Of a stretch of 64,000 nt of DNA, positions 25,365-59,220 are shown piece after piece. The stretch's first letter is position 1. Every line of letters starts with the position of its first letter. The notes beneath the pieces were generated by a model. It saw nothing but the letters and a program-made list of their open reading frames with translations. It had not been told where the DNA came from and ran no database searches. This stretch comes from Candidatus Forterrea multitransposorum CG_2015-17_Forterrea_25_41 (GTDB lineage: Archaea; Iainarchaeota; Iainarchaeia; Iainarchaeales; CSSED10-239): positions 352,001 to 416,000 of the forward strand of contig CP045477.1 in the NCBI GenBank assembly GCA_009392915.1, read 5' to 3'. The translations under genes were made by a program, and so were the position numbers.

Positions 25365-26854
25365 GTGATCCGTCCGCAGGTTCCCCTACGGACACCTTGT
25401 TACAACTTAGTCTACCTCGCGAAATATAGAATAACTTTATCCTTTAGTAGAGTAAAGTTCATCAACACTCCACTCGGTTGGCTTGATGGGCGGTGTGTGC
25501 AAGGCGCAGGGACATATTCACCGCGTGATAGTGACACGCGATTACTGGGGATTCCAGCTTCATGAGGGTGAGTTGCAACCCTCAATCCGGACTTAGACTA
25601 AGTTTTTGAGATTGCCACCCCTTTTCAGGTTAGATACTCTTTGTCTTAGCCATTGTATGCCGCGTGTTGCCCAGAACATTCACGCTATACAGACCTACCT
25701 TCGCCCACTCCTTCCTCATTGTTACCAATGCAGTCCTATTAGAGTGCCTTCTTTTGCAAGCAAAAAAAGTAGCAACTAATAGCATGGGTCTCGCCCGTTA
25801 CCTGAGTTAACAGGAAGCTTCACAGTACGAGCTGACGATGGCCATACAGCAGTTCTCAGCGCATCAGGTAACCCCTTCAGAGTGACCATCATATTGCTGT
25901 CAGCCCTGGTAAAATATCTGGCGTTTCATCCAATTAAACCGCAGCATCCACCCCTTGTAGTGCACCCCCGCCAATTCCATTAAGTTTCAGTCTTGCGACC
26001 ATACTTCCCAGGCGGTGAATTTAATGGTTTCCCTTCGGCCCTGAGCTAACTCGTAGTTAACCCAACACCTAATTCACATCGTTTACGGCTGGGACTAACC
26101 GGGTATCTAATCCGGGTTGCGCCCCCAGCTTTCGTATCTCACTGTCGAATCCGTACTCGTTAAGCGCCTTCGCCACAGGTGGTCTTTTTAGTATCTTAAG
26201 ATTCTACTCCTACTCTAAAAATACCCTTAACGTCTTCCGGTTCCTAGTCATGCCAGTATCTTTTGCAATTCAACTAGTTAGGCTAGCTGCTTTCACAAAA
26301 GACTTAACAAACCAGCTACACACGCTTTAAGCCAAATAATGCTGGATACCACTTGGGGATTACGTATTACCGCGGCGGCTGGCACGCATATTGCCCTCCC
26401 CTTATTCACATAGTTATTCACACTATATAAAAGCTTACATAGTAAGCACTTGGAATCTCTTTATCACGATTTCTCGCATTGTAAAAGTTTCGTAACTGCT
26501 GCACCCCGTAGGGCTAGGGACATTATCTCAGTTCCCTTCTCCGGGCTACCTCTCTCAAGGCCCGTACAGATCTTCGGCTTGGTAGGCAGTTACCCTACCA
26601 ACAACCTAATCTGGCGCAGTCCCATCCTTTCGCGCCAAAGAAGCATGATTCTTTGACCTTTAAAATAGTAATCATTCCAGATTTACTTTTTTATAGAGCA
26701 TTATACTCAGTTTCCCGAGTTTAACTCTTCAAAAGGGTAGGTTGACCACGTGTTACTGAGCCGTTCGCCAAAACCTCTCATAGCTGAGGCTTTAAGACTT
26801 GCATGTCTTAGTCAGATTCCAATAGCAGTATCCACCAGCAGGATCAGCTGGAAT
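25365..26854 (-). rRNA. 16S rRNA (archaeal)
   Basis: 5' ATTCCAGCTGATCCTGCTGG... and 3' ...GTAACAAGGTGTCCGTAGGGGAACCTGCGGACGGATCACCTCCT read on the minus strand. Universal segments (GTGCCAGCCGCCGCGGTAA etc.) present. About 1490 nt. Confidence 0.9.
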
Positions 26855-40710: not shown

Positions 40711-41364
40711 ATGATACCAAAAATAACACCAAAAATATTTCCAAAATCAAAGATTGGAAGAAATAAGTTTAATAAAACATTAAAAAACGATCCTTCAGTT
40801 AAAAGAACTGAAATTCAACTTCTATCTATCCCTGGAAAAGGAATACATGATGTTTCTTCAAATAGACGAAAATATAGAGTTGGAAGAGATACTTTAAAGT
40901 TTGAAAAAATACTTAATGAAAGAGTAAAAGAATCTTTTAGAAAAAAATTAAGAAACTTAGAAAATAGAAGTCAACTTTTACACACACATATAACAAAAAG
41001 AAAATCTAAGAGTACTAAAGAAGAATTTGGAATGGCTCTTCCATCAAAATCAGATATTATTTCTTTTATGGAAGATAGAAGAAAAACTATTAAATATCAA
41101 ATAATTTCTGTAATTGACCCTAAGATTAGAAAACCTATAGGATATACAACTATTAAGATTAACACTTTAAAAGCAACACCTAAACAATTTATTGAAAGAA
41201 TAGATGGGTTTATTACAAAAGAAACTATTAAAAATGCTGAATATAAAAAACATATTTTTGAAATGATGGAAAGTTTAGGTATGGAGATTTATTTCACTCC
41301 TGAAGATGGTTATTCCTTAAATAGAAATTTTAATTATGTGAGGAAAAATGAAGCCAAGAAATAG
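40711..41364 (+). CDS. hypothetical protein, family A copy 1 (N-terminal PKITPKIFPK...; GYTTIKIN; C-terminal EIYFTPEDGYSL)
   Basis: Paralogous to the next gene, which overlaps its stop by 17 nt. Confidence 0.45.
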   Translation: MIPKITPKIFPKSKIGRNKFNKTLKNDPSVKRTEIQLLSIPGKGIHDVSSNRRKYRVGRDTLKFEKILNERVKESFRKKLRNLENRSQLLHTHITKRKSKSTKEEFGMALPSKSDIISFMEDRRKTIKYQIISVIDPKIRKPIGYTTIKINTLKATPKQFIERIDGFITKETIKNAEYKKHIFEMMESLGMEIYFTPEDGYSLNRNFNYVRKNEAKK

Positions 41365-42043
41365 TCCAAGAATAACTCCAAAAGTAAAAGCTTTGCCAAA
41401 GATAGGAAAAGTAAAATTTTCAAAAGAAATCAAAACTCTTGAAATTAATAAACTAAATAAAGTTGCTTTCTATAAAGCTCCTGGAGAAAAACCTGTAAGC
41501 ATTTCAGGAGATAGATTGAATTCTTTTGCAGTTATTGATTCTGCAAAGTTTGATGCTATTTTTAAAAATATTAATAAAAAAAGAACAGATACTGGAAAAA
41601 AATCTATAGATAAAGAAAAGGGAAGTCTTTTTTATTTTAAACTACAAGACCCTAAACTTAAAGGAAAATATAACAATGGAAATGCAATTCCTGATCTTTT
41701 TTCACTTATTGATTCAATGTTTAAATATCCTAAAACAAGACATGGTTATGATGTTATGGCTGTTGTAAGTCCAGAGAAAAAAGTCTTAGGATATACCACT
41801 GTTAAAATAAATCATGCATTTATGAAAAAAATACTTCCAGAAATTGAAAATAAAACTATTAAAAATAGAAATGATTTTACAAGAAAAATAGTACATCTGC
41901 TTTCGAATATGGAAGGAAATATTAAAAATAAAGAAACTGTTTTTAATGTTTTAAAAGTTTTAGAAAAGATTGGCTTTGAGGTTTATTTTACTCCTGAAAA
42001 AGGATATAAGCTTGATAAGGAATATAGATTTATTAAAGAATAA
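41348..42043 (+). CDS. hypothetical protein, family A copy 2 (GYTTVKIN; EVYFTPEKGYKL)
   Basis: Collinear with the N-terminal, central and C-terminal motifs of copy 1. Confidence 0.45.
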   Translation: MKPRNSPRITPKVKALPKIGKVKFSKEIKTLEINKLNKVAFYKAPGEKPVSISGDRLNSFAVIDSAKFDAIFKNINKKRTDTGKKSIDKEKGSLFYFKLQDPKLKGKYNNGNAIPDLFSLIDSMFKYPKTRHGYDVMAVVSPEKKVLGYTTVKINHAFMKKILPEIENKTIKNRNDFTRKIVHLLSNMEGNIKNKETVFNVLKVLEKIGFEVYFTPEKGYKLDKEYRFIKE

Positions 42044-42046
42044 TAA

Positions 42047-42808
42047 TTATCTCCAAAAAATAAATTTTTTATCAGAGTATTTTGAATATAATTCTTTTGT
42101 CATAAATTTTTCTTTTTCAGTTAAGCTAGATGTCATGAAATTAATATTAAAAATTTCCTCAAAACCTTGAACAATTGCAGAAATAATTTTTTCTTTTGGA
42201 ATTGTTTTATAATCATATAAACCACAAACAAGGTCTTTTGCAGATTTTACTTTTTTTTCAAGAAGTTTTTTATCGTCTATTTTTAAATATTTAAACATTA
42301 TTTCACATTCAGGTTTTAAAAGAATAGTACCATGATGCAAAATAACATTATCAACTCTTGTTTGTGCATTTCCAGAAATTTTTTTATTATTAAGTAAAAT
42401 ATCATTTACAGGTTTAAAAGTAGTTTCAAATCCAAGTTTTCTTAGTCCAGCTATAATACCACTGCATATTAAAGCATAAGATTTTTCAACATCTTTAGGT
42501 ATACAAAAATCATCTTCTCTAATAATTAAACTATAATTTATTTCATAAAGAGGAGACTTATAAACAGCCCCTCCTCCTGTAATTCTTCTAAAAATTTCAA
42601 TATTATTTTTACTACATTCTTCAAGATTTAATTCTTTTTTAGCTTCTTGAAAAAAGCCTAAAGAAACAGCAGGTTTGTTCCAAGAATAAAACCTAAGTGT
42701 TGGAAGAGAAGATTTATCTCTAACAGAAGACATAATAGCTTCTTCTGATGCCATTTTATAATAAGAATCTTCTTTATCTTCAAGAGAGATTAACCTCCAT
42801 TTTTTCAT
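42047..42808 (-). CDS. lplA: lipoate-protein ligase A (catalytic domain)
   Basis: LRFYSWNKPAVSLGFFQ, RRITGGGAVYK and ILLNNKKISGNAQ motifs of the BPL_LplA_LipB domain. Confidence 0.75.
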   Translation of the reverse strand: MKKWRLISLEDKEDSYYKMASEEAIMSSVRDKSSLPTLRFYSWNKPAVSLGFFQEAKKELNLEECSKNNIEIFRRITGGGAVYKSPLYEINYSLIIREDDFCIPKDVEKSYALICSGIIAGLRKLGFETTFKPVNDILLNNKKISGNAQTRVDNVILHHGTILLKPECEIMFKYLKIDDKKLLEKKVKSAKDLVCGLYDYKTIPKEKIISAIVQGFEEIFNINFMTSSLTEKEKFMTKELYSKYSDKKFIFWR

Positions 42809-43131
42809 TTATATTCCTCTAAAGCTTCTTTAACATATGACAAATAAACAAAAGAAGGTCCTCCTCCCATTAAAACTGCAACCCATGCAATTTCTAAGAT
42901 TTCCTCTTTAGTATATCCTTTATTTAATGCATTTTTTGTATGAATAAAAATACACCCCTTACATTGAGATTTAATTGCAATACCAAGAGCAACAGCTTCT
43001 TTTACTTTTGAAGAAACTTTTCCATCATTTTCTACAATTTGCATAAAATTTTGAAAAGCATTAATATGTTCTAAATTATTTTTTTTAAGATATATAAATA
43101 AATCATTAAATTTTTGTTCTTCATTTTTCAT
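42805..43131 (-). CDS. AhpD-like / carboxymuconolactone-decarboxylase-family protein
   Basis: 108 aa; CKGCIFIHTKNALNKG is a CxxC...H core of the AhpD/CMD fold. Confidence 0.6.
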   Translation of the reverse strand: MKNEEQKFNDLFIYLKKNNLEHINAFQNFMQIVENDGKVSSKVKEAVALGIAIKSQCKGCIFIHTKNALNKGYTKEEILEIAWVAVLMGGGPSFVYLSYVKEALEEYK

Positions 43132-43144
43132 ACTACAATCACCT

Positions 43145-43543
43145 TTACTTCATTGTTTTATCAAGCCATTCAATAATTTTATCTGCTTTAAATAAATCAT
43201 CTATTTCTTTAATATCAGATATCTTTAATTTAATAATCCAAGAATCATAAGGACTTTTATTTATTTTTTCAGGAGCATCATATAATTCTTGATTTATTTC
43301 AATAACCTCTCCACTTAAAGGAGAAGTTAAATGACCAGACCATTTTAAAGTTTCTAAAGAAACATATATGTCTTTTTTTTTTATTTTTTTAAAATCAAAA
43401 AATTTTATAAATAAAAATTCTTTTAATGTTTTTGCAATAGGTTCAATAATACCTATTGTTGCAATATCTTTTTCTATTTTAATCCAACTTGAGTCTTTAT
43501 TATATAATAAATTATCAGGAAGATCATATTCTTTATATTTCAT
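43145..43543 (-). CDS. GcvH-like lipoyl-carrier protein
   Basis: The lipoyl-lysine context SLETLKWSGHLTSPLSGEVIEIN aligns with the GcvH ESVKAASD...SGEV region. Confidence 0.7.
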   Translation of the reverse strand: MKYKEYDLPDNLLYNKDSSWIKIEKDIATIGIIEPIAKTLKEFLFIKFFDFKKIKKKDIYVSLETLKWSGHLTSPLSGEVIEINQELYDAPEKINKSPYDSWIIKLKISDIKEIDDLFKADKIIEWLDKTMK

Positions 43544-43550
43544 AATAAAA

Positions 43551-44807
43551 TCACTTTTTTATTTTATTCTTAATAAAAATAATTATCCCAGTTAAAATCA
43601 AAGCTATTAAAATAACTCCAATAGCAGAAAATATATTATTTAAAAGACCTGGAGAAAAGACAAGCATACCACCTAAAGATAACATCATCATACCTGAAAG
43701 TAATTTTAAGGATTCTCCTTGAGATTGAGATAATTTTCTTGCACCTAAAGTATATGTAAATATTAAAACTATTACAAGTAATGGTAAAACATACATTAAG
43801 TTATAAAATAATAAATAAGAATAATAACTTACATTACTTAATTGATTTAAAACTAATATTTTTGTAAAAACCATAGGGAAACCAGCAGTACATAATAACT
43901 CATAGATGTTTGCTGTTATTGCAAGAACTATTGTTCCAATCATCATTGAAGTCATAGATTCTGCTTTTAAAAGACCTCTCATCTTTGTAATCAAATTTTT
44001 TCTATGATCATCTGAAACTGATAAAGTAATTCCTTTTTTAAAAGCAAAAAAATCTTTAATATTTATAATTGCAATTACTAAAGCTATAATTCCTGCAATT
44101 GTTGTAACAATTGAAATATTTTGTGTGACTTTAAAAAAATTAAGCCATGCTGACATGAATAAAAAATAAATTAAACCAGAAAAGAAAATAAATGTAAGAC
44201 CAATAATTAGCATTCTTTTCTTATTCTTTGCATAAACAAGCATTGATAATAAAAATAATAAAACAAAAAAAGCACAAGGATTAAAACCATCTAAAAAACC
44301 TAAAATTATTGTTAAAAGTGGTAAAGAAACAGAACTTCCATCAATTTTACCAATTAATGGAATATTAAAGGTTTGGGAAGAATTTTGGTTTATGTCTTGT
44401 AAATTATTATCTTGATCTAAATTAATATCATTTACTTCAATTTTTGCATTTTCAATTATACCAATAATCTCATCATTCATTTGAGAGCTATAACCTACAA
44501 AATATTGATCACCTATAAAGGTTGTAGGCACACCCTGAGGTTGAAAACCATGAGATTGTGTTAAATCATAAAAGAGCTCCTGATTTTCAACTGAAGACAC
44601 TTCATAATAATTAATATTTAGATAATCATAATTATTTTCAATAGATGTTAAAAAATTTTTTAATTCTGCACAATGAGGACAAGTATTACTTACAAAAATA
44701 TTTACATCTAAATTGTTTTCTAAAGCATTAACAGATACTGAAAAAACTAATAAAAATAAAAAAGTAAATAAAAATATTTTGTTTAAGATAATTTTTTTTG
44801 TTTGCAT
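43551..44807 (-). CDS. thioredoxin-domain / CcdA(DsbD)-type transmembrane thiol:disulfide reductase fusion
   Basis: N-terminal signal, thioredoxin CPHC (NTCPHCAEL), then a multi-TM DsbD core with the FNPCAF Cys motif. Confidence 0.7.
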   Translation of the reverse strand: MQTKKIILNKIFLFTFLFLLVFSVSVNALENNLDVNIFVSNTCPHCAELKNFLTSIENNYDYLNINYYEVSSVENQELFYDLTQSHGFQPQGVPTTFIGDQYFVGYSSQMNDEIIGIIENAKIEVNDINLDQDNNLQDINQNSSQTFNIPLIGKIDGSSVSLPLLTIILGFLDGFNPCAFFVLLFLLSMLVYAKNKKRMLIIGLTFIFFSGLIYFLFMSAWLNFFKVTQNISIVTTIAGIIALVIAIINIKDFFAFKKGITLSVSDDHRKNLITKMRGLLKAESMTSMMIGTIVLAITANIYELLCTAGFPMVFTKILVLNQLSNVSYYSYLLFYNLMYVLPLLVIVLIFTYTLGARKLSQSQGESLKLLSGMMMLSLGGMLVFSPGLLNNIFSAIGVILIALILTGIIIFIKNKIKK

Positions 44808-44832: not shown

Positions 44833-45291
44833 CTACATTAATAATTCTAATTCTTTATTTAAAAAAATAATATTTTTATTATTTTCTTTTTTAACAAGAA
44901 CAATATTTTTTTCCTTAAGTTTTTTAATTAGCCTATGAGCTTTTATTTTGCCATATTTTTTTGCTAAAACCAATTGTTCTATTCTACCATTTTTTTCAAT
45001 AATATAACTTAAGAATGATTTTTCTTCAAAAGATAATATAGAATAAATAGTATTTTGATTTGAAAAAATAATTTTATTTTTTTTAGTTAAAGATAAAGAA
45101 TGAAGATAATAAAATAAAGATATTGAAAATATAATGATTAATAATATAAAAATAAAAAAAGTGTTTTGAGAAATAACATTACTACAAGTACAATCTTTTC
45201 CACTTAAATAATCTTTTTCAAGAAATATAAAAAAGATTATAATAGATATAAAAGAAATTATCGAAATTATAAAAGAATATTTTGATTGCAT
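44833..45291 (-). CDS. small membrane protein with C-terminal wHTH-like segment
   Basis: Two TM helices, then a KNGRIEQLVLAKKYGKIKAHRLIKKLKEKNIV HTH-like region; weak. Confidence 0.35.
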   Translation of the reverse strand: MQSKYSFIISIISFISIIIFFIFLEKDYLSGKDCTCSNVISQNTFFIFILLIIIFSISLFYYLHSLSLTKKNKIIFSNQNTIYSILSFEEKSFLSYIIEKNGRIEQLVLAKKYGKIKAHRLIKKLKEKNIVLVKKENNKNIIFLNKELELLM

Positions 45292-45352: not shown

Positions 45353-45592
45353 AAAAAACAGTTACTATATATTGAAACAAGATTTAAAAATAAAACTATT
45401 AAAAATAAAAATTACTTGACAAGAAAAATAATAAACCTAATTTTAAATATTAAAGAAAATATAAATAAAAAAAGAAGAAATGTTTCTAATGTTTTAAAAA
45501 TTTTAGAAAAGCTTGGTTTTAAAGTTTATTTAACTCCTGAAAGAAGATATAAGCTTGATAAGGATTATAATTATGTAATAGACGGAAAATAA
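45353..45592 (+). pseudogene. decayed C-terminal fragment of a family-A gene (third copy of the 40711-42043 paralogs)
   Basis: The frame reads ...NKTIKNKNYLTRKIINLILNIKENINKKRRNVSNVLKILEKLGFKVYLTPERRYKLDKDYNYVIDGK* with no start codon and an in-frame TAA at 45350. Clear nucleotide similarity to 41838-42043. Confidence 0.5.
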
Positions 45593-45728
45593 TTTTTATA
45601 AGTATAATTTAATCTTTTTTAAAATAATTGAACATAAGGTTAAAATAATTCGTAATTATCAATACATATAATATATAAAAATATTTTTAAATATTAGCAA
45701 TAACAGTACCAACAAAATACATTTATTA

Positions 45729-45786: not shown

Positions 45787-46743
45787 TTAATATCTAGATG
45801 GTTGAATTAAAGTTATTAAATAATCTTTCTTTAAAGAAGTCATAAGCAATTCAACTCTAAACCCTGTGTCTTGTAATATTTGTACAATTGAACCCATTGT
45901 AAATTTATAAGATCTGCCTATTAATAAAAAATCATCTTTTTCAAGTTTTATTTTTTCAGAACCTATCTCAATATAAATATCATCTTTTAAATAAATGGTT
46001 TGCTCAACCTGATTTAATAAAATATTCCAAGCAACATTATATTCTACTTGATCATCTTTAATTCCAAGATAATGTGGAACAAACATAACAAAATTATAAG
46101 CACCTGTTATTTTATATTTATTAATTATATTATCTGTTTTATAAATATTAGATAATTCTACACCTAATAACATATAATCATCTGAGCCCATTGAATCACG
46201 AATATTAGTAAGAACTCTTTCTCTATTAAAATGATTTCCTAAAGTAGAACCTAAAAAACAAAGTAAATTATTAAATCCATCTTTTTTTAAAGTATAAATT
46301 ATATCTGAAAATTGACCTTGCTCAAAATCAATATTGATAGGTAATATTTCTACATCAAATTTTTTAGATATATTATTTTTAGCTAAATTTAACATAGAAT
46401 TACTTATATCTATAGGCACATATCTAAAAACAATATTATTCTCTTTTAAATAATCTAAAATAGGTAATATTGGCTCACCAGTTCCACAACCAAGATCAAT
46501 AATATTTAGTTTAATATCCTTTAAATCGTAAGTAGATATTATATCTTGTATTCTTTTTTTAAGTAAAACAGATTCATTAGAATTAATTGTATTTTTAGAA
46601 TTAGCTCTTAAATTTGAAATATTAAACCAATTTTCTGCTCCTTTATCTAAATAAGCAAATTTTAATGGTATTTCACCAGTAGCCTTAATAGAGGTAATTA
46701 ATTCAAATTCTTGTTTTTGTGATAACATAAATAAATTATACAT
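45787..46743 (-). CDS. class I SAM-dependent methyltransferase
   Basis: Motif I IIDLGCGTGEP and motif II/III spacing; substrate unknown. Confidence 0.65.
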   Translation of the reverse strand: MYNLFMLSQKQEFELITSIKATGEIPLKFAYLDKGAENWFNISNLRANSKNTINSNESVLLKKRIQDIISTYDLKDIKLNIIDLGCGTGEPILPILDYLKENNIVFRYVPIDISNSMLNLAKNNISKKFDVEILPINIDFEQGQFSDIIYTLKKDGFNNLLCFLGSTLGNHFNRERVLTNIRDSMGSDDYMLLGVELSNIYKTDNIINKYKITGAYNFVMFVPHYLGIKDDQVEYNVAWNILLNQVEQTIYLKDDIYIEIGSEKIKLEKDDFLLIGRSYKFTMGSIVQILQDTGFRVELLMTSLKKDYLITLIQPSRY

Positions 46744-50399: not shown

Positions 50400-50444
50400 T
50401 TAACTATATATCCTACAAGTATATTTATTTTTAAAAAAAATATA

Positions 50445-51206
50445 TCATACAATTATCTTTAAAATTAGTTTTTCAATTATATCTTTATTTATTCTAAGTA
50501 TGCTAGAGACCTGTTCTAGTTCTTCTTTAGTTATATTTGTTTTAAATTTAATCAATCTTTCTTTAATCGTGTGATTTTTTATAAAAGAAATTAAAGTAGA
50601 TATATCTTCTCCAGAATATAAACATAAAGCAACTATATCACAATAATCTTTAATCTTTTTATGTGTTTGACCTCTATTTACTACAGAATTTATCTTAGTA
50701 GCTAATAATAGAGGTGGAGAGGGTAGCCATAATTTTTTATTAAATTCAATTAATTCTGTTCTATATTTTTTATTCTCAAACACTAACTTAACTAAAGGTT
50801 CATCTGCAGGTGCAAATCCAAGTTCATTTATTATTTGTTTGTTAGTTTCTGCAATTAAAAGATCAATATACATAGGAAAAATATTATGAATAGGAGTGGT
50901 GATTGATTCTTCTTTGGTTAGTTCTTTTCCAGTTTCATAATTTATTTCTTTTAAATATCTAAAACTAACTAATTTAAATCCATTTTCTTCTAAAATATTA
51001 GATGTATATTTAAATGATTTTATAGTATTAAACCCTAAATCTACATCTCTTGAACCAATATAATCAGTTCCAAATTCTGATTTATATCTTGAATTTACAG
51101 TTAAATATGTAGCCCAACCTCCAATAATTATAATTGGTTCTTTTAGTTTAGATATAATTATTTTTAAATAATCATAACTAATTTCAGTTTCTTTTTTGTC
51201 GTACAT
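50445..51206 (-). CDS. AbiEii-like nucleotidyltransferase toxin (type IV TA / abortive infection)
   Basis: IIIGGWATYL...YIGSRDVDLGF matches the AbiEii/DUF1814 NTase motif (GG.A...R.S.D.DL). Overlaps the upstream wHTH gene by 23 nt. Confidence 0.55.
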   Translation of the reverse strand: MYDKKETEISYDYLKIIISKLKEPIIIIGGWATYLTVNSRYKSEFGTDYIGSRDVDLGFNTIKSFKYTSNILEENGFKLVSFRYLKEINYETGKELTKEESITTPIHNIFPMYIDLLIAETNKQIINELGFAPADEPLVKLVFENKKYRTELIEFNKKLWLPSPPLLLATKINSVVNRGQTHKKIKDYCDIVALCLYSGEDISTLISFIKNHTIKERLIKFKTNITKEELEQVSSILRINKDIIEKLILKIIV

Positions 51207-51777
51207 ATTTATTAAGTAGTATATTATATGCTTCTATACATACCCCACCTTCTTTTTTAAGATCAATTAATAATTGAGGAATAGAGACAACCTTGAGTTC
51301 GTTTATTTTATTTGATTCTTTAAAAACATCTTTACCTTTTGAAATGATTAAAACTACATTTCCATTACCAATCAATCCTTTAGTTAAGATTAAATCTTTC
51401 CATTTTACATAATCTTCTTTAGAAATATATGCTTGAAATTTGTGTGGGAATAGATGATGATTAATTATATTTTCAGCAGCATAGGTTGTTAATGCATAAT
51501 CTAAGTTAGTTGTTTTAAAAAAATCAAGTGGATTTGATATATGAAAGTAATATTGTTCATATTTTTTATCTATTTTTATATAATAATCAATAAGTTTATT
51601 GACATCAATAACTTTTGTTTTTTCAATAATCCCTTCATTTTCTAATTTTCTAAGAAATTGAATAGTCCAAGCAATAGAGGTATTTGAAATTTTTGAAAGT
51701 TTATACTTAGTTAAACTTCCATCTGGATTATTTAGAAGAATTTTTATGATTTTTAGATTTTTTATATTTCTCATCAT
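51184..51777 (-). CDS. AbiEi-like wHTH antitoxin/transcriptional regulator
   Basis: N-terminal winged-helix (LSKISNTSIAWTIQFLRKLENEGIIEK) plus a C-terminal domain; genetic coupling to the NTase gene. Confidence 0.5.
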   Translation of the reverse strand: MMRNIKNLKIIKILLNNPDGSLTKYKLSKISNTSIAWTIQFLRKLENEGIIEKTKVIDVNKLIDYYIKIDKKYEQYYFHISNPLDFFKTTNLDYALTTYAAENIINHHLFPHKFQAYISKEDYVKWKDLILTKGLIGNGNVVLIISKGKDVFKESNKINELKVVSIPQLLIDLKKEGGVCIEAYNILLNKYVRQKRN

Positions 51778-51791
51778 ATATATATTGGTTA

Positions 51792-52295
51792 TTAGAAGGG
51801 TTTATAAAGGTTACCGATATATTGGTAATATTGGTAGTATATAAACTTAACCAATATAGCTATTAACCAATACTTCTTTTTATACTCTCTAGCATCAATT
51901 CTTTCTTTTAATTTTATTCTTTCTTCTACAAGTTCTTGTTTTCTTGTCTGAATTGCAAAATAACTTTGAGCAAATGCAATTTCTTCTTTTCTTGAGTCTC
52001 CATTTTGTGCTATTAAGTAACATGCATATCTAGTTAATGTATAATCAATTATTTCTCTTTCTGCATCAGATCCTAATTTAACCTTTTTCCTGACCTCAAG
52101 AAAATGGTCATTAATATTAAATCCTGAATTTTTACAAGAAATTTTTGCTTTTTCAATTATACTTACAAAATTTTCCCATTTAGTATAACCTAAAAGGTCT
52201 TGTAACTCCCTTGCAAGCCAAAATTCAAGATTATCTTTAAAATAAGCACTATCTTGAAAACTTTTAGTTAGTTTATAAATTATTTCTCTTTGCAT
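51792..52295 (-). CDS. DinD-like (DNA-damage-inducible protein D / BRO-N-like) protein
   Basis: The N-terminal half is collinear with E. coli DinD: FWLARELQDLLGYTKWENF...NDHF...GSDAEREIIDYTLTRYACYLIAQNGD...YFAIQTRKQEL. Confidence 0.65.
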   Translation of the reverse strand: MQREIIYKLTKSFQDSAYFKDNLEFWLARELQDLLGYTKWENFVSIIEKAKISCKNSGFNINDHFLEVRKKVKLGSDAEREIIDYTLTRYACYLIAQNGDSRKEEIAFAQSYFAIQTRKQELVEERIKLKERIDAREYKKKYWLIAILVKFIYYQYYQYIGNLYKPF

Positions 52296-52346
52296 AGAAC
52301 ATCACATATATATAAGAGTCTTTAATTTATATATTGATTTTGTAAG

Positions 52347-52367
52347 AGAGGGTAAATGGCCGAGAAA
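52347..52367 (+). repeat. 21-bp direct repeat AGAGGGTAAATGGCCGAGAAA (copy 2)
   Basis: Exact match to 48811-48831. Confidence 0.6.
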
Positions 52368-52382
52368 GAGAAGAATAGAATT

Positions 52383-52934
52383 TTATTTTAATAAAGCATA
52401 AAGATAATTATCATATACTTTACCATTATAGATAGCTGATTTTTTTAAAAGCCCTTCTTTTTTAAATTTACTTTTTTCTAAAACTTTAATAGAGCCTATA
52501 TTTTTAGTACAAACTTCAGCTGCTATTCTTTTAATACAGGTATTTTTAAATAAAAAATGAATATATGCTTTTATAGCTTCAGACATAAATCCTTTATTCC
52601 AATAAGAAGAATGAAGCATAAAACCTAAATCACATCTTTTAAAATCTTTAATAATTGTAAAAATATCAATAGAGCCTATTAATTTATTTTCATAAGTTAT
52701 AAAAAAAGAAGCTCCTTTTCTTTTTTTCCAAGCATCTACTTTTCTTAAAATTTGTTTTTCTACAATCTTTCTTGAGTTTTTATTATCTCCAGAACCATTA
52801 TATATCCAGAGATTTTTATCTTCATATAACTTATAAAGTTCTTCTTTATATTTTATATCTGGTTTTATAAGTAATAATCTTTTTGTCTTTACTGGCTTAT
52901 ACTTATAACCTTTGTTAAATATTTTTTCATCCAT
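52383..52934 (-). CDS. GNAT acetyltransferase (RimJ/RimL-like)
   Basis: Motif A region and the C-terminal ...KVLEKSKFKKEGLLKKSAIYNGKVYDNYLYAL typical of the RimL family. Confidence 0.7.
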   Translation of the reverse strand: MDEKIFNKGYKYKPVKTKRLLLIKPDIKYKEELYKLYEDKNLWIYNGSGDNKNSRKIVEKQILRKVDAWKKRKGASFFITYENKLIGSIDIFTIIKDFKRCDLGFMLHSSYWNKGFMSEAIKAYIHFLFKNTCIKRIAAEVCTKNIGSIKVLEKSKFKKEGLLKKSAIYNGKVYDNYLYALLK

Positions 52935-53619
52935 GGTTTAACCTTTTATATTCTTTAATTGCTTTATTAAGTACATTTAAAAAATTAGGATCTTTTTTCC
53001 ATTCTTCTAAAATAAATACTCTTAATTTAGAATGTTTAGAATAACCATCATCTTTAATTTCTATTAAATCTTTAAATTCCTCATTAATTATTACTGTAAA
53101 AGATTCTTTAATATCATGAATTTCAGATTCAGATAAATTACTTTCTTTACAAACGTTCCAAAAATAACTATGAAAGAATAAATGCATAAGCTCATGAATT
53201 ACAACTCTAAATAAATATTTATCCACATATTCGATATAAATGAATATTCCAAACCACTTTTGGTTTTTTCTAAATTCATAAGGACAAGCAACAAAAGTAT
53301 TATATTTAATATATACTTTATTAACAGGAAATTTATTTTTGTGAATCTTTTCTAATTTATTTATTATCTCATCCTTATATTTATTCAATTTTAGATTAGA
53401 ATTATAAAAATTAGTTAAATACTTTTTAGAATAAAATTTTTTAGTGTATTTATCTATTAACTCAACTTTTTTAGAATCAGATGCACTTATTAAAGAATTT
53501 TTAAAATCCTCAGGATAATCTTTAAACCAATCATTACCATAAGCACTAGAGTTTTTAATAAATTTAAGCCAATTTTTTAAATTTTCTTCTTTTGATACAA
53601 TAAATTCTATTTCAACCAT
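52927..53619 (-). CDS. putative HExxH zinc-metallopeptidase-like protein
   Basis: VVIHELMHLFFH motif; otherwise unassigned. Confidence 0.4.
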   Translation of the reverse strand: MVEIEFIVSKEENLKNWLKFIKNSSAYGNDWFKDYPEDFKNSLISASDSKKVELIDKYTKKFYSKKYLTNFYNSNLKLNKYKDEIINKLEKIHKNKFPVNKVYIKYNTFVACPYEFRKNQKWFGIFIYIEYVDKYLFRVVIHELMHLFFHSYFWNVCKESNLSESEIHDIKESFTVIINEEFKDLIEIKDDGYSKHSKLRVFILEEWKKDPNFLNVLNKAIKEYKRLNHG

Positions 53620-53627
53620 AATAAATC

Positions 53628-54008
53628 TTAAATTTCAATTATGTATTCTTTTAAAACTTTTGTACCCCATATTCTAAACTGAGTTGCTTTAGATGAATTT
53701 ACTCTATATCCTACTGATATTATTGCATCTAAATTATAAAAATCAACATTTCTTTTAACATCTCTAGTTCCTTCTTTTTGAACTATTAGGAATTTCCTAA
53801 TAGTTTGATTTTTATTTAACTCTGCAGAATCATATATATTTTTTAGATGTTCATTTATAGTTGGGATTTCAACTCCAAATAATTCTGCAATCCTTTTCTT
53901 AGTTAACCATATATTTTCATTATAAATATAAACATCTAATTTTACTTCTCCATCTGGAGATTTATACAATAAAAATTTATTATTTTTAGAAATGATCTCT
54001 TTAGTCAT
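53628..54008 (-). CDS. RhuM-family (virulence/phage-associated) protein, N-terminal domain only
   Basis: NLDAIISVGYRVNSSKATQFRIWGTKVLKEYI is the hallmark RhuM segment. The gene is about one third the usual length. Confidence 0.6.
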   Translation of the reverse strand: MTKEIISKNNKFLLYKSPDGEVKLDVYIYNENIWLTKKRIAELFGVEIPTINEHLKNIYDSAELNKNQTIRKFLIVQKEGTRDVKRNVDFYNLDAIISVGYRVNSSKATQFRIWGTKVLKEYIIEI

Positions 54009-54361
54009 AATATTTATTCTACTTTTTATATTTATTCTACTTTTTATATTTATTATTCTTTTAAATTATTTAATCACAAACAATTTTTCTAAGTATAATA
54101 ATAGAAGATTATTTATGTTTAAAAAGCTTTCCAAAGTGCCTGACCATAAAAGGATTTTTAATCTTTTGATAACTTGTAGTATAGTTATTAATATTAAATT
54201 TTTCAGAATCAGAAACACCCTTTTTTGATACTTTTTAACTTAAAAATATCATGAGTGATACTTTTTTAATTAATAGTGTCAAAAGACTACCTTTTTGATA
54301 ATTTTCTAATAATCTACAAAATAAGTTATGTTTAAATAGATTATTAATTATTAAACTATCT

Positions 54362-54817
54362 ATGGATATAGAAAAATTACCTTTTAGAAAAGAAGTTACA
54401 GCATATATTGTAAATGAAAATAAAGAATTTATAGTTATCTTTTCAGCACTTGCAAACAGGTTTTGTAAAACTCCTGCTGGAGGTGTTGAAGAAAATGAGC
54501 CTTCAGATAAAGCAATATTAAGAGAAATTAAAGAAGAACTTAATCTTGATATAGAAATTATTGCAAAATCAAAGATAGAATACAAATGGGAACATACAAA
54601 AGAAAGAATAATTGAAAGAAACTTAAAATTTAGAGGATCAACTGGAGAAGTTTTTCTTGCAAAAATAAACCCACCAAATCAAGAGATTAAAATACAAGAA
54701 GAAGAAATCTCAGGGTATAAATGGATTAAAAAAGAAGATGTAGATAATTATTTTGCAACAGACACTTTAAAAGAAACAGCAAGAAAGATGTTTGAAGAGT
54801 TTAAAGAATATTTTTAA
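54362..54817 (+). CDS. Nudix hydrolase
   Basis: Nudix box GGVEENEPSDKAILREIKEELNL. Confidence 0.7.
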   Translation: MDIEKLPFRKEVTAYIVNENKEFIVIFSALANRFCKTPAGGVEENEPSDKAILREIKEELNLDIEIIAKSKIEYKWEHTKERIIERNLKFRGSTGEVFLAKINPPNQEIKIQEEEISGYKWIKKEDVDNYFATDTLKETARKMFEEFKEYF

Positions 54818-55406
54818 AAAAATGATATTATTTATGAAAATAAGAAAAATAAAATTAAGAGAGCTAAAAGAAGCAGATATTTTTAAAGAAAAAATATTAA
54901 ACCCAGAAAAAAAAAGAAGATATAGACCATATTATAAAATTTTAAAAAATTACAAAAGAGAGCCTTCTTTATTTATTGGAGCTTATGATAAAAATAGAAT
55001 TATAGGAGTTGCTTTTGGGCATATTATAAAAAATAGAATATTATTAGGTGAAATGGCTGTTTTAGAAGAGTATAGAAACAAAGGGATTGGAAAAAAAATA
55101 TTAAAAAAAATTGAACAAAATTCAAAAAAATTAAATAAGAAATATATAGAGCTTGGTGCTCTTGATAATGCAGAAAAATTTTATCTTAAACAAAATTACA
55201 AACCAATTATTTTTGTGCAAATATATCCAAAAAATATCTTGAAAAATTACAATCATTTAAATTATAAAATAATTAAAGAAACAAATTATGTTGATTCTAA
55301 AAGATTTTATATTGAGGTTAAAAGATATGATCCTAAATTAAAAGAAAAAATAGAAAAAGAATTTAAAGCATATGATGTAATCTATTTATTTAGAAAATAT
55401 TTATAA
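54792..55406 (+). CDS. GNAT-family N-acetyltransferase
   Basis: Motif A VLEEYRNKGIGKKIL. Confidence 0.6.
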   Translation: MKSLKNIFKKMILFMKIRKIKLRELKEADIFKEKILNPEKKRRYRPYYKILKNYKREPSLFIGAYDKNRIIGVAFGHIIKNRILLGEMAVLEEYRNKGIGKKILKKIEQNSKKLNKKYIELGALDNAEKFYLKQNYKPIIFVQIYPKNILKNYNHLNYKIIKETNYVDSKRFYIEVKRYDPKLKEKIEKEFKAYDVIYLFRKYL

Positions 55407-56924
55407 CTTAAAATCCCAAAGATGTTTACCATCAATAGTTGCATTCTTATCCATCTCTTGGATATACTTTCTAATTACCTTATAACTCTTTTCTAAAGGA
55501 GTTACTGGTTTTTTACCTTGATCAATTCTTGTAAAAGAAGAAATAATGTCTTCTTTTGAATATTCCTTAAGTAATAATTTATAAAAACCTTCTTGTAAGA
55601 AAGGTACAAGATTTCTAAAATAGGAAGAAGCTAGATTTAAATTATTTTTATTTTTTGCCTTAAGATACTCTTTAAAGTTATCTTGCATAAATTCAACCAT
55701 ATTTTTTAACTTTATTTCAATATTTATATAATCTAAAGATAAAATATACTTAGTTAATTCTTTTTTATCATTTTCAAATTCTTTTGTTTTAATTATTTTT
55801 ATCATTTTAAATAAAGATTTTTCTTTATTAACTAAAATTTTTAATTTTGGAGAATAATATACTTTTCCTTTCTTTCCATCAACTATAACTTCATCAAAAT
55901 TATTTGTTTCTTTTAATAATTTTGAAATATTAATACCACCAATACAAGGTATATTATTTTCTCTTGCAACTATTGCAGGATGTGAGGTTATTGAATCAAC
56001 TTCACAAATAACAGCTTTAGCTTTTTTAAAAATAAGGTCATATTCTGGAAAAAGAACATAAGTAACTAAAATATTTCCTTTTTTAAATATTTTATAAGCT
56101 TCTTTAGGGTCAGTTGCATCTGAAACATATTCTATGTTTCCTTTAGCATAACCATTTGAAAGGGTTATACCTTTTAGTTCTTTTTGGTTTTTTGCTTTAT
56201 TTACTATAATTTTTTTAATATTTTTTAAAGTAGTAATATTTCTTGTTTGTAAAAACCAAATTCTGTCTTTATTATCTATTGCAAATTCTATATCTTGAGG
56301 ATATTTAAAATATTGTTCAATTTGTTTTCCTTCTAGATATAATTTTTTAAAAGTTTTATTTAATTGTTTAGTAGTATTAATTTTTAAAGAATTTTTCTTT
56401 CCTGAAACCATTTCTTCTAGATGTCCTTTTACATGTTCTATTAAAAAACCTTTATTTGTTATTGGGTTTTTTGTAAAATATACTCCTGATAGTTTTGGTA
56501 TTATTTGTTTTTGTATAATTACAGCTAAGGTATCTTTTAATTTTTTATTAGTATATGATTTTAAAGAGATTTTCTTTTCTGAAGCAATAACTTTAGATAT
56601 TGCTAAAAATAGTTCTTTTTCATTATTTATATTTGTAATTGAGGTAAACTGTCCTGCAAAAGATTGTTTTACAGAATCTTCATAGATTGAAGAGCTTCTA
56701 ACAACTAAAGGGTATAATTCTCCTCCATAGTCTATTTGTTTTAAATAATCTTTAATTTGTTTCTTTAGATTAAGAGAAAAAGATTTTTTTATTATTTTAC
56801 AGAAATCTCTAGAGAGAACAAAACCATTAGGCACATTATAGGCTGCTCTTTTTAAAAGCATTAGGTTATATGCTTTATTTCCTACTTGTTTTTTATCAGC
56901 TACAGTGTAAAGGTTATAGATCAT
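55401..56924 (-). CDS. PEP-utilising-enzyme family protein (PPDK-type ATP-binding N-domain plus phosphohistidine swivel domain, no PEP/pyruvate TIM-barrel domain)
   Basis: The N-terminal VGNKAYNLMLL...VPNGFVL...VVRSSSIYEDSVKQSFAGQF...PQDIEFAID...LQTRNIT matches the PPDK_N domain. The C-terminal ICEVDSITSHPAIVARENNIPCIGGI matches the mobile His domain. Confidence 0.65.
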   Translation of the reverse strand: MIYNLYTVADKKQVGNKAYNLMLLKRAAYNVPNGFVLSRDFCKIIKKSFSLNLKKQIKDYLKQIDYGGELYPLVVRSSSIYEDSVKQSFAGQFTSITNINNEKELFLAISKVIASEKKISLKSYTNKKLKDTLAVIIQKQIIPKLSGVYFTKNPITNKGFLIEHVKGHLEEMVSGKKNSLKINTTKQLNKTFKKLYLEGKQIEQYFKYPQDIEFAIDNKDRIWFLQTRNITTLKNIKKIIVNKAKNQKELKGITLSNGYAKGNIEYVSDATDPKEAYKIFKKGNILVTYVLFPEYDLIFKKAKAVICEVDSITSHPAIVARENNIPCIGGINISKLLKETNNFDEVIVDGKKGKVYYSPKLKILVNKEKSLFKMIKIIKTKEFENDKKELTKYILSLDYINIEIKLKNMVEFMQDNFKEYLKAKNKNNLNLASSYFRNLVPFLQEGFYKLLLKEYSKEDIISSFTRIDQGKKPVTPLEKSYKVIRKYIQEMDKNATIDGKHLWDFKL

Positions 56925-57087
56925 ATTTAATCAAGTGTAATAGATATATGAGGATTTATGTTTAAAAGGCTTTCTTAAGTAGCTTATAAAAGGACTTTTT
57001 TCTTTAATCTGTAAAGAAAAACCTTAAAATCCTTAAAAAAAAGAAAATAATAAATAGATTAAAAATAATTTAATTTTAAATTATAAT

Positions 57088-57753
57088 CTATTTATTAATT
57101 ATATTGATAACATCAATTAAATCTTCAATTACATAATCTGGTTTATATAAAAAATGTTTATAAGGCAATTTAAGTGGATTATATAAAACAGCATTAATTC
57201 CATATTTTTTAGCTTCAATATCAACAGATAAATCCCCTATATGTAAAACATTTGAAGGTAAATAACCATCTAATTTAATTTTATTAATAAAATCAACATA
57301 TGGTTTACCAGATGCTTTCTTTCCACCTACTTCATTAGATAATGAAAAATATTTAAAATTATTAAATTTATTTTCTTTAACCCAATCTTTAATCCAGCTA
57401 GTTTTTGTATCACTAATAATTCCAAGAATATAATCTTTTTTTATTAAGTATTTTATTAATTTTAAAGTATTTTTAGAAAATTTATTTTTTAAAGTATATT
57501 CTTTGGAATTATTTATTATATTATTATAATTTTCAGAAATTGCTTTAGATAGACTTTTAGTATATTTAATATTAATTTTTTTTAATAAAACTTTTAAAAA
57601 AGCATCTTCTTTATATTTACTATTTTGAAAATCTCTCCAAGTTTCTTCAACAGCCTTAAGATAATTATTATATGTTAATGTAAAATTTTCTTTTTTTAGT
57701 ATTTTAAATTCACTTTTATATATTTCAAATAACAAATTTGGATCACTATCCAT
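57088..57753 (-). CDS. HAD-superfamily hydrolase
   Basis: Motif III/IV region HIGDLSVDIEAKKYGINAV and LGIISDTK. Confidence 0.55.
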   Translation of the reverse strand: MDSDPNLLFEIYKSEFKILKKENFTLTYNNYLKAVEETWRDFQNSKYKEDAFLKVLLKKINIKYTKSLSKAISENYNNIINNSKEYTLKNKFSKNTLKLIKYLIKKDYILGIISDTKTSWIKDWVKENKFNNFKYFSLSNEVGGKKASGKPYVDFINKIKLDGYLPSNVLHIGDLSVDIEAKKYGINAVLYNPLKLPYKHFLYKPDYVIEDLIDVINIINK

Positions 57754-58296
57754 AAATAAAGTATTTGAAACGTCAAAAGATATTATTTTTATAGTTTTAA
57801 TAATAATCCCTCTTTATTTTATATTTATAATAATATATAAAACTCATATATTATTTAATTATATCTTTTATAATAAAACATTTTAAATAAGAAAGAAATT
57901 ACAAGAAAAACCTTAAAATCTTTTCAAAAAGTTTAAAATTATCAAAAAAAGAATAAAAGAAAATAAAACTACTTACAATTAATAAGACTATTGGAAAATA
58001 TAATAAAAGGTTTCTAAATAAAACTAAAGGCCATGCAATAACATCCATTATAAAGAGAGAAAATTTATTCTTAAGTAGTAATAACTAAAAAAGTATTATA
58101 ACTATATTGATCTGTTTTTAATAAAAGAAAGGTAAAAATTTAAAAATATATTAATAATTGCAAAGGAAAAAGTGGCAATTAATAGATATATTGTTATTTT
58201 TTGTTTGTTTTTCATAATATAATATATTGTTAAAAGCTTTCTAACAGCTACAATTAAGTAAAACTTAAATATACTTATGTAACTCTTAATATTTAT

Positions 58297-58533
58297 ATGG
58301 TAGAAAAAGAACTTGCACTTATAATAAATGGAAACTTAAGAAAAAAGATAATATTAAGTTTAGCAATTCCTAACATAGCCACAAATTTAGCAAAAAAATT
58401 AGATGTTTCAAGATCTTCTGTATCAAGGACCTTATTATTTTTAGAGAAGCATTTTCTTGTAGAATGTATAAATAATGATGCAAGTTTTAACAGGTTATAC
58501 AAGCTTACCTTAAAGGTACAAGAAAGTTTCTGA
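58297..58533 (+). CDS. small wHTH transcriptional regulator (ArsR/PadR-like)
   Basis: LAKKLDVSRSSVSRTLLFLEKHFLVE recognition helix/wing pattern. The overlapping minus-strand 69-aa ORF is low complexity. Confidence 0.4.
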   Translation: MVEKELALIINGNLRKKIILSLAIPNIATNLAKKLDVSRSSVSRTLLFLEKHFLVECINNDASFNRLYKLTLKVQESF

Positions 58534-58566
58534 TATGTTAAGGAAGATGTGATTATTATACTTTAA

Positions 58567-59220
58567 TTAAGTATAAATTATTTTACTTTTTATAAATTTA
58601 ATTTCAAGTTTTTCTGTGCATTTAATTTTAATTATTATATTTGCACTTTTTGAAAAATTATCTGCAAAAATATTTATGTTTGAACTAATTTTATATATTT
58701 TATTTTTTTCAAATTTAATTTTAGGAAATCCAATAGGTATTTGTTTAATCATAGGTAAAATATTTCCATTTATATTTACACTTCCTTCAAAAAAATTAAA
58801 TAAATCTAAATAATGCAATTCATTTTTAGATAAATTAAAATTTTCTTTACCTTCAGAACATTTACCTTTATGAGTTGCACTCCAGACAAAATAATTAGGA
58901 TCAAAAGGATATATTTTTTTATTATTCAATTTTATTTCATTACATTTAATTTTAATATTGTTTATTGCTATTGAACCTATATTTATTACTTTTATTCTAA
59001 AATAAATTAAATTACAACTTGAACCATCATGTTGATTAATATAAATTTTATTAATCTTATGAACACAGTTAACATCATCTAAATCAATTTTAATTTTTGG
59101 TTTTTTAATAAAATTAATAATATCTTCTTTAAATAATGCAACAACTACTGCACATAGAGTTAAAAAAGCCATAATTATTTGAATAATTGAATCTAAATTA
59201 TTTTCAACCATCAATACCAT
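58567..59220 (-). CDS. single-pass membrane protein of unknown function, translationally coupled to hsdR (17-nt overlap)
   Basis: N-terminal TM IIQIIMAFLTLCAVVVALF; no motifs. Confidence 0.45.
   Translation of the reverse strand: MVLMVENNLDSIIQIIMAFLTLCAVVVALFKEDIINFIKKPKIKIDLDDVNCVHKINKIYINQHDGSSCNLIYFRIKVINIGSIAINNIKIKCNEIKLNNKKIYPFDPNYFVWSATHKGKCSEGKENFNLSKNELHYLDLFNFFEGSVNINGNILPMIKQIPIGFPKIKFEKNKIYKISSNINIFADNFSKSANIIIKIKCTEKLEIKFIKSKIIYT

Follow-up and report, generated by a model that had tools for sequence, protein, structure and literature searches.

Five neighbouring genes on the minus strand of a DPANN archaeal genome encode a lipoyl carrier protein, a lipoate-protein ligase, two proteins with CxxC motifs, one of them in the membrane, and a membrane-anchored regulator, and are examined here as a candidate lipoyl-linked thiol relay. 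They lie within a window of 64,000 nucleotides (positions 352,001 to 416,000 of the forward strand of contig CP045477.1, Candidatus Forterrea multitransposorum). The window has a G+C content of about 24%, is marked as archaeal by its small-subunit (SSU) rRNA gene at 25360-26854, and encodes proteins whose nearest named relatives come from DPANN metagenome-assembled genomes (MAGs) labelled Iainarchaeum-like, Woesearchaeota, Nanoarchaeia, Aenigmarchaeota, Undinarchaeota and Pacearchaeota. In window coordinates, taken from the list of open reading frames (ORFs), the genes are as follows.

42047-42808, minus strand: catalytic subunit of lipoate-protein ligase (LplA), 253 amino acids.
42805-43131, minus strand: AhpD/CMD protein with a CxxC motif, 108 amino acids.
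43145-43543, minus strand: GcvH-like lipoyl carrier, 132 amino acids.
43551-44807, minus strand: glutaredoxin/thioredoxin-fold and membrane protein (here called GrxMem), 418 amino acids.
44833-45291, minus strand: membrane-anchored winged-helix regulator, 152 amino acids.

An earlier note, made from the DNA sequence alone, had described the first four as co-oriented, tightly packed genes at 42047-44807, and these coordinates agree exactly with the ORF list: lplA and ahpD overlap by 4 bp and are followed by gaps of 13 bp and 7 bp. As a unit the four genes were correctly identified, but the fifth, at 44833-45291, was overlooked. It is the first gene of the operon, co-oriented with the others and 25 bp upstream of the GrxMem gene. 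The best explanation of this arrangement is that the regulator, GrxMem, GcvH-like, AhpD and LplA genes form a single operon.

The carrier matches the GCV_H family (PF01597) at 2.6e-26 and H proteins in the PDB at about 1e-18 to 3e-18. Its lipoyl-lysine is K67, at the conserved hairpin position in the motif ETLKW (nt 43340-43354); this lysine is invariant in an alignment including canonical GcvH sequences. The protein has no cysteine. Proteins of this type carry the public annotation 'glycine cleavage system protein H', and this name and the strong Pfam match are what would be expected if the carrier were an ordinary glycine-cleavage H protein lying, with its ligase, beside unrelated redox genes by chance. 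However, the carrier scores under both NCBIfam cutoffs for GcvH (96.2 against 117 for the NF002270 subfamily model and 74.2 against 115.85 for the TIGR00527 equivalog model) and falls in a distinct, DPANN-specific clade with the signature LE(A/T)(L/V)KWSGH. Members of this clade are at least 49% identical to the window protein (125-272 bits), while the nearest canonical GcvH is at most 46% identical, at about 90 bits. No gene of the GcvT, GcvP, Lpd, E1 or E2 families was found in the window by Pfam annotation and by reading of the ORFs at 1-14 kb, in line with the earlier statement that it holds no glycine-cleavage P, T or L genes and no 2-oxoacid dehydrogenase genes. Nor did over 20 related loci contain gcvT, gcvP or lpd; canonical loci, by contrast, show the order gcvT-gcvH-gcvPA-gcvPB without any of the partners described here. 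The latter loci made up most of what a metagenome scan with a single GcvH-like protein returned, and they served as negative controls. With scores under both cutoffs and no linkage to gcvT, gcvP or lpd, the carrier is a GcvH-like protein outside the GcvH equivalog. Its adjacency to the membrane protein is moreover conserved across DPANN lineages (below), and a chance association of an ordinary H protein with redox genes is in our view very improbable.

The ligase matches LplA-B_cat (PF21948) at 2.5e-47, and its best matches in the PDB are 2ars and 3r07 ('Lipoate-protein ligase A subunit 1', 3e-31), which we take to be the Thermoplasma acidophilum enzyme. It carries the sequences RRITGGG (nt 42569-42589) and KKISGNAQ (nt 42362-42385), presumably the lipoyl-AMP loop and the catalytic-lysine motif of LplA, respectively. 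The protein ends after the catalytic domain and is thus a catalytic subunit only, of the archaeal bipartite LplA type. The AhpD-type protein matches CMD (PF02627) at 1.1e-13, with 51.4 bits against a cutoff of 23, and the AhpD core domain model TIGR00778 with 36.2 against 27.8; its best PDB match is the AhpD structure 5dik (2.9e-17). The catalytic constellation Glu-x11-Cys-x-x-Cys-x3-His is complete, as E45, C57-K-G-C60 and H64 (nt 42940-42963), and the same four residues are kept in the AhpD-type proteins of five loci. The LplA, AhpD-like and GcvH-like identities proposed in the earlier note are thus borne out by the Pfam, NCBIfam and PDB matches.

GrxMem is identical to NCP79283.1, a protein from a MAG labelled 'archaeon'. 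Residues 36-102 have a glutaredoxin-type fold, and this soluble domain is a minimal glutaredoxin/thioredoxin fold whose best matches are thioredoxins and glutaredoxins of approximately 85-140 residues. The protein has exactly four cysteines, all of which are invariant in 24 homologues: two in the motif CPHC at residues 43-46 (nt 44670-44681), C178 in FNPCAF (within nt 44268-44282) and C306 in ELLCTAGFP (within nt 43881-43898). An AlphaFold2 model, with a predicted local distance difference test score of 76, comprises an N-terminal hydrophobic signal or anchor helix, the thioredoxin fold, a disordered linker and seven transmembrane (TM) helices, with helix breaks at C178 in TM1 and at C306 in TM4. 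Since the numbers of lysine plus arginine residues per loop alternate (2/4/0/7/0/2/0/4), the thioredoxin-fold domain is placed outside and the long loop between TM3 and TM4 inside. Every cysteine of GrxMem, the AhpD-type protein and the regulator sits in a conserved motif, and on careful alignment all of the predicted redox residues, including the lipoyl-lysine and the CxxC pairs, proved to be present and conserved.

The membrane part of GrxMem has no Pfam match, and neither DsbD_TM (PF02683) nor DsbD_2 (PF13386) was found at E<=10. The closest Pfam family is SfLAP/GAP, which was reached below threshold and by two relatives only; SfLAP/GAP and DsbD are both 3+3 TM families of the LysE superfamily (PMC4608589). 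We compared a 134-sequence alignment of the membrane domain with eight DsbD_TM/DsbD_2 proteins, Pfam-verified and drawn from the fetched loci, using hhalign. The two aligned over 213 collinear columns with 73% probability (P = 3.1e-5), and C178 and C306 both fell on the DsbD redox cysteine pair. The real template scored 41.1, against 15.4 for the reversed template and 19.6 for the best of 30 column-shuffled ones. With a thin alignment of 14 sequences the comparison was not significant (1.3-1.6% probability), a hidden Markov model of the membrane domain gave no direct match to DsbD_2/CcdA proteins, and hhalign detected no internal repeat between the halves of the domain. Taken together, the alignment supports the view that the membrane domain is a remote homologue of DsbD/CcdA, related at the superfamily level and forming a family of its own. 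We read GrxMem as a predicted DsbD/CcdA-like transmembrane thiol-disulfide relay. The earlier call of a thioredoxin-CcdA fusion therefore holds as far as superfamily-level homology to DsbD goes, but not as membership of a Pfam DsbD family.

This membrane family is large, with 4049 clusters at 50% identity (E<=1e-3). In nearly all of its 150 best matches the domain lies C-terminal to at least approximately 100 residues, typically comprising one to three thioredoxin-fold domains, and one homologue (P0190) is fused at its C-terminus to a periplasmic ZnuA domain. Members from cultured Shewanella are named 'cytochrome C biosynthesis protein' or 'thioredoxin family protein' by NCBI.

The 152-residue product of the first gene is predicted to have two TM helices and a cytoplasmic winged helix-turn-helix (wHTH) domain, with a cysteine pair, C34-T-C36 (nt 45184-45192), in a predicted outside loop. 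Directly upstream of the membrane-protein gene, 13 archaeal loci encode homologues, which retain a cysteine pair of the form CxC or CxxxC. For the window protein no match was found in Pfam or NCBIfam, but 12 of 14 family members match PF24034 (DUF7343) and wHTH models of the MarR/TrmB type; profile matches in the PDB are weak, to wHTH domains of Lrp and MarR.

We next consider how far these genes travel together. A scan of species-representative genomes recovered at least 510 with relatives of the membrane protein, distributed among DPANN archaea, Nitrospirota/Thermodesulfovibrionia, Omnitrophota, Desulfuromonadales and Shewanella, and the best 80 loci were examined. Eighteen of these are archaeal, and for 16 of them downstream sequence is available. 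In 14 of those 16 a gene for a GcvH-like protein of the DPANN clade follows immediately, frequently with overlap of the stop codon, and the membrane proteins of the linked archaeal loci are 44-66% identical to GrxMem. An adjacent GcvH-like gene was seen in none of the 62 bacterial loci. The reverse test gave the same picture: the divergent members P0152, P0153 and P0155 of the GcvH-like clade are each encoded directly after a membrane-protein homologue, as are the GcvH-like proteins of loci L082, L083 and L108. The full order of regulator, membrane protein, GcvH-like protein, AhpD and LplA recurs in L005 (an Undinarchaeota MAG), L082 and L108; conservation in related DPANN genomes was one of the checks proposed in the earlier note.

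Richer DPANN clusters contain further genes. Directly after gcvH, and overlapping it by 4 bp in L099, many encode a flavoprotein disulfide reductase of the coenzyme A-disulfide reductase (CoADR)/NADH oxidase (Nox) class; the best NCBIfam model is CoA-disulfide reductase, reached with 181-318 bits, far under its cutoff of 579, and Lpd models give about 100-130 bits. A bona fide LipA, scoring 340-355 bits where the cutoff is 310, is likewise encoded in the relatives' clusters, LplB follows LplA in L058, L099 and L103, and some clusters add a second anchored CPHC thioredoxin. A DUF169 (PF02596) gene stands between the GcvH-like gene and lipA in L003 (10622-11359), L101 (3033-3815) and L102 (2682-3464), and its product may be a further component of the module.

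In bacteria, by contrast with the archaeal loci, the homologues are unlinked to lipoate genes and lie among genes of thiol, peroxide and sulfur chemistry. In Shewanella the Pfam-verified neighbours are MarR (OhrR), OsmC/Ohr and an AhpF-like protein. In L032 (Nitrospiraceae) a periplasmic thioredoxin, identified by eye, and a true CcdA, verified with Pfam, are encoded directly upstream of the membrane-protein gene. In L036, L046 and L048 (Omnitrophota/Elulimicrobium) the gene overlaps one for a radical S-adenosylmethionine (SAM) protein of the BioB type, followed by a methyltransferase-looking ORF; the radical SAM protein had grouped with LipA in clustering, but family models assign it to BioB, and a bacterial link to lipoate was dropped. 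The Omnitrophota loci also hold peroxiredoxin, thioredoxin and split YeeE-like genes nearby, all read by eye, and an Npsr-like reductase whose CoADR class was checked with models. In Nitrospirota, neighbours read by eye as ArsC, ArsR and ArsP occur in a cluster of 15 loci.

ATPase genes adjoin some members of the family. In L020 (Altiarchaeales) paired P-loop ATPases of the CbiA/ParA type with 4Fe-4S domains flank the membrane-protein gene, as verified with Pfam, and a Nitro_FeMo-Co-type protein is also encoded there. CbiA/ParA-type ATPases lie upstream of the membrane-protein gene in L108 as well (Pfam), and similar ORFs were seen by eye upstream in L046.

The recurrence of the carrier-membrane protein pairing across DPANN lineages suggests that protein-bound lipoate here may move thiol reducing power across the membrane rather than serve metabolism. 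We lean towards the reading that a dedicated lipoyl protein, built and used by the operon, is the cytoplasmic partner of a transmembrane thiol-disulfide relay, a reading drawn from gene content and linkage. It keeps the core of the earlier proposal, that of a lipoyl redox module coupled to a thioredoxin-membrane thiol relay and apart from glycine cleavage, which the conserved synteny supports; the parts of that proposal concerning AhpD, the reductase and the Staphylococcus aureus parallel fare less well (below).

The analysis establishes what the genes encode, which residues are conserved, the topology, the remote homology to DsbD and the conserved linkage. From these features we infer a scheme for how the parts touch and pass on electrons and in which direction, for what AhpD and the regulator do, and for the substrates, along the following lines. 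LplA, with LplB where this is encoded, would attach lipoate to K67 of the carrier, or else octanoate, which LipA would sulfurate in the relatives. A flavoprotein using NAD(P)H would then reduce the lipoyl group to the dithiol; in many relatives the CoADR-class enzyme encoded after gcvH is the candidate. The dihydrolipoyl arm would in turn reduce the buried C178/C306 pair from the cytoplasmic side, on its own or by way of AhpD in the role of a thioredoxin-like adaptor, and this pair would reduce the CPHC thioredoxin-fold domain on the outer face. The outer domain might keep surface or exported thiols reduced, or repair or detoxify oxidised targets. Finally, the anchored winged-helix protein, with its outward cysteine pair, probably senses the redox state outside and controls the operon.

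Several observations weigh against this reading. The first concerns the missing partners. Homologues of LipA and LplB were not found in the 64-kb window, and no lipoyl-group reductase was found there either; since none is present, the reductase for the window carrier must be encoded elsewhere in the genome or be replaced. Thioredoxin reductase is likewise absent from the window. A ligase without LipA is what would be expected of lipoate salvage, storage or relay, in which the carrier would act as a lipoyl acceptor and donor, as do Bacillus subtilis GcvH and S. aureus GcvH-L, and the membrane protein, as a descendant of a transporter lineage in the LysE superfamily, would take up or reduce external lipoate for LplA. 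In keeping with this, LplA always accompanies the carrier, the Pfam family nearest to the membrane domain, SfLAP, is of the transporter type, albeit sub-threshold and from two relatives (PMC4608589), and S. aureus GcvH-L is a lipoyl reservoir and donor (PMC12440151). Many of the related clusters, however, encode bona fide LipA and hence would have no need of uptake, and neither the window nor any related locus shows a lipoyl-accepting E2 or amidotransferase. A plain transporter would not be expected to carry a pair of invariant cysteines that match the redox cysteines of DsbD in alignment, and the bacterial homologues have no linkage to lipoate genes. We regard salvage as an unlikely explanation of the cluster.

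The second concerns AhpD. The AhpD-type gene is present in five of approximately 20 archaeal clusters, and two of three unbiased AhpD look-ups fell outside clusters with the carrier-GrxMem pair. Its position equals that in the window in L005, L082 and L108, and at least 14 of 32 close AhpD homologues lie on a contig matching in size that of a cluster member. In these clusters AhpD counts as an accessory component, restricted to certain lineages. No AhpC-TSA or Redoxin match was found among the window genes; with no peroxiredoxin partner in the window, the AhpD-type peroxidase chemistry suggested in the earlier note is conjectural.

The third concerns the direction of electron flow, for which outward is a tentative assignment, because the outer motif CPHC is identical to the active site of the oxidase DsbA of E. 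coli and because one homologue (P0048) carries a C-terminal VKOR fusion. Both would suit a reversed flow, in which the outer domain acts as a DsbA-like oxidase and electrons pass inward through the membrane cysteines to the oxidised lipoyl carrier, which would be re-oxidised by an AhpD, peroxide or Nox-like flavoprotein branch, giving a quinone-free replacement of DsbB/VKOR. The invariance of CPHC, the Cys-rich exported protein encoded in the window and the CoADR/NADH-oxidase class of the cluster flavoprotein would fit such a scheme, as would the general lack of respiratory quinones in DPANN archaea, to our knowledge. Against it, all of the characterised members of the DsbD family known to us carry reductant outward, the bacterial gene neighbours are reductive and antioxidant, and the soluble domain is a minimal glutaredoxin/thioredoxin fold rather than a DsbA with its inserted helical domain. 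Lipoamide, with an E0' of about -0.29 V (PMC6067878), would also be a poor acceptor from a DsbA-type couple. We consider an oxidase of this kind distinctly unlikely.

The fourth concerns sulfur trafficking. In L003 and L103, genes for TusA, YeeE/Sulf_transp and DsrE/DsrH stand between gcvH and lipA, and a further alternative is that the lipoyl dithiol and the cysteine relay handle sulfur or metal(loid)s, passing sulfane sulfur or thiosulfate (with TusA/YeeE/DsrE), or soft metals or arsenite, across the membrane in the manner of LbpA-sHdr or MerP-MerT-MerA. The ORFs resembling ArsC, ArsR and ArsP that often lie beside bacterial homologues, the ZnuA fusion of one homologue and the Zip and cation-efflux genes flanking L099 would accord with this, and LbpA, a protein that resembles GcvH and acts in sulfur oxidation, likewise has a dedicated ligase (PMC6067878). 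On the other hand, neither the window operon nor the minimal clusters L005, L082 and L108 contain TusA, YeeE, DsrE or metal genes, no hdr-like genes were seen in any locus, and the carrier lacks the two cysteines of LbpA. The ars neighbourhood, moreover, is largely limited to related Nitrospirota and thus represents few independent events. Sulfur or metal handling as the main role seems to us improbable to about the same degree as salvage.

Returning to the transmembrane thiol relay with a lipoyl partner, a stronger form of it can be stated. In DPANN archaea without 2-oxoacid dehydrogenases or glycine cleavage, the sole task of protein-bound lipoate might be to stand in for thioredoxin as the redox partner that a new DsbD-like family has in the cytoplasm; LplA, LplB and LipA would then be a dedicated assembly line for it, and the CoADR-class enzyme a dedicated reductase. 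This is possible but rather doubtful. The potentials of lipoamide and NAD(H) are almost equal, and in sulfidic habitats the relay could therefore even work inward, drawing reducing power from outside.

Lipoate is generally seen as a cofactor that belongs to a few complexes of central metabolism, and few other roles have been reported for it, namely those in the Mycobacterium tuberculosis AhpD relay, with LbpA in the sHdr system and with GcvH-L. Here gene linkage joins a dedicated carrier, along with the enzymes that mature it and a reductase, to a transmembrane cysteine relay, and does so in organisms of minimal metabolism. If functional, such a system would explain why 'glycine cleavage H' and lipoate-ligase genes are retained in reduced DPANN genomes, would give a function to a large unannotated membrane family whose members occur in Nitrospirota, relatives of Geobacter and cultured Shewanella as well, and would extend the DsbD paradigm by a cytoplasmic electron donor of a new kind, in a five-gene system tractable for reconstitution. 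Were the stronger form true, lipoate would have a third, non-metabolic role, and episymbionts a hitherto unknown way to power thiol chemistry at the cell surface. The conserved linkage is surprising and directly testable, and the function proposed for it is a genomic inference.

The other features of the window that touch on redox chemistry or on the borders of the operon are as follows.

5467-5697: glutaredoxin gene, adjoining an ArsR regulator gene at 5700-5969.
8618-9817: gene for an exported Cys-rich protein, with a sub-threshold match to Thioredoxin_4 (17.4 bits against a cutoff of 23.2).
9946-10338: desulfoferrodoxin (dfx) gene.
41844-42067: left copy of a direct repeat of approximately 225 nt, at the 3' end of the 231-amino-acid ORF 41348-42043.
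45384-45610: right copy of the repeat, holding a 58-amino-acid ORF fragment at 45416-45592.

The dfx gene and the glutaredoxin-ArsR pair were rightly identified in the earlier note. The protein that it called DsbA-like is a genuine exported Cys-rich protein, but the thioredoxin resemblance is weakly backed, the match being sub-threshold. The two repeat copies that bracket the operon are 77-80% identical and spaced approximately 3540 nt apart, and the 58-residue fragment resembles the C-terminus of two paralogues of 217 and 231 residues. The longer of these, ORF 41348-42043, is a tandem paralogue of 40711-41364 and has no Pfam family. One possibility is that the five-gene operon entered a tandem gene array by insertion or underwent recombination there.

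Directly upstream of the operon, on the minus strand at 45787-46743, lies a gene of the Methyltransf_33 family (EgtD-type histidine-specific methyltransferases; 4.2e-33), whose product could point to a thiol-histidine antioxidant resembling ergothioneine. Elsewhere in the window, a tRNA-Ala gene (25025-25098) stands beside the SSU rRNA gene; because the 64 kb contain no large-subunit or 5S rRNA above threshold, it appears that the rRNA genes are not linked. An 808-amino-acid ORF at 10515-12941 on the minus strand consists almost entirely of a short degenerate repeat, (A/V)GF(S/T)xK(D/E)LK, and has no assigned family. The region from approximately 50400 to 64000 resembles a defence or mobile-element region, with a type I restriction-modification system (HsdR at 59204-62260, an S subunit, an AAA_15 ATPase and a PIN_12 protein) and RhuM-like and Bro-N-domain genes.

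How does the proposed relay compare with systems that are already known? In the DsbD/CcdA relay, electrons pass from cytoplasmic thioredoxin to two membrane cysteines and on to an extracytoplasmic thioredoxin-fold protein. GrxMem resembles these proteins in its outer thioredoxin-fold CxxC domain and in its 3+3(+1) TM domain, where TM1 and TM4 are broken helices that carry a single cysteine each. It differs in its motifs, FNPCAF and ELLCTAGFP as against PC..P, and in the conserved cytoplasmic neighbour, which in DPANN archaea is a lipoyl carrier instead of thioredoxin or thioredoxin reductase. GrxMem has no Pfam DsbD match and belongs to a large family of its own, with which true CcdA genes coexist in some genomes.

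The M. tuberculosis relay, with thioredoxin-fed DsbD/CcdA the nearest precedent for the proposed chain, runs from NADH through Lpd, lipoyl-DlaT and AhpD to AhpC (PMC12028322). It shares with the present operon the pairing of a protein-bound lipoyl group with an AhpD-family CxxC protein, in which the Glu, Cys, Cys and His residues are intact. However, the carrier here is a stand-alone H-like protein and not an E2, the window has no AhpC, the reductase of the relatives is of the CoADR class and not Lpd, and the conserved partner is the membrane relay, with AhpD optional.

LbpA, the GcvH-like protein of sHdr sulfur oxidation, has its own ligase and two conserved cysteines (PMC6067878). It too is a GcvH-like carrier outside glycine cleavage, with a dedicated single-domain LplA-type ligase and lipoyl synthase (PMC6067878, PMC10332631), and TusA and DsrE genes occur in the clusters of some relatives of the window operon. 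The carrier described here nevertheless lacks the two cysteines near the N- and C-termini, and the relatives encode classical LipA as opposed to LipS1/S2. Membership of the LbpA group was rejected, the carrier being cysteine-free and no locus containing hdr-like genes.

The GcvH-L-LplA2-SirTM-macrodomain operon of S. aureus and Streptococcus (PMC12440151, PMC4518038) also joins a second, stress-linked H-like carrier to its own ligase, and the earlier note had drawn this analogy. The present operon is archaeal, its carrier is linked to a membrane thiol relay, and it contains neither a sirtuin nor a macrodomain protein; as the SirTM and macrodomain genes define the system, the analogy does not extend to membership, which was rejected. 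With the archaeal bipartite LplA/LplB enzyme, its best PDB match, the window ligase shares the catalytic-subunit-only architecture, and differs in that no LplB gene accompanies it in the 64 kb. Full-text literature searches, together with papers on DPANN genomics, yielded no account of linkage between a DsbD-like protein and a GcvH-like/LplA module. Lipoyl-protein thiol relays and DsbD-type transmembrane relays are each known separately, and it is their proposed combination that would be new.

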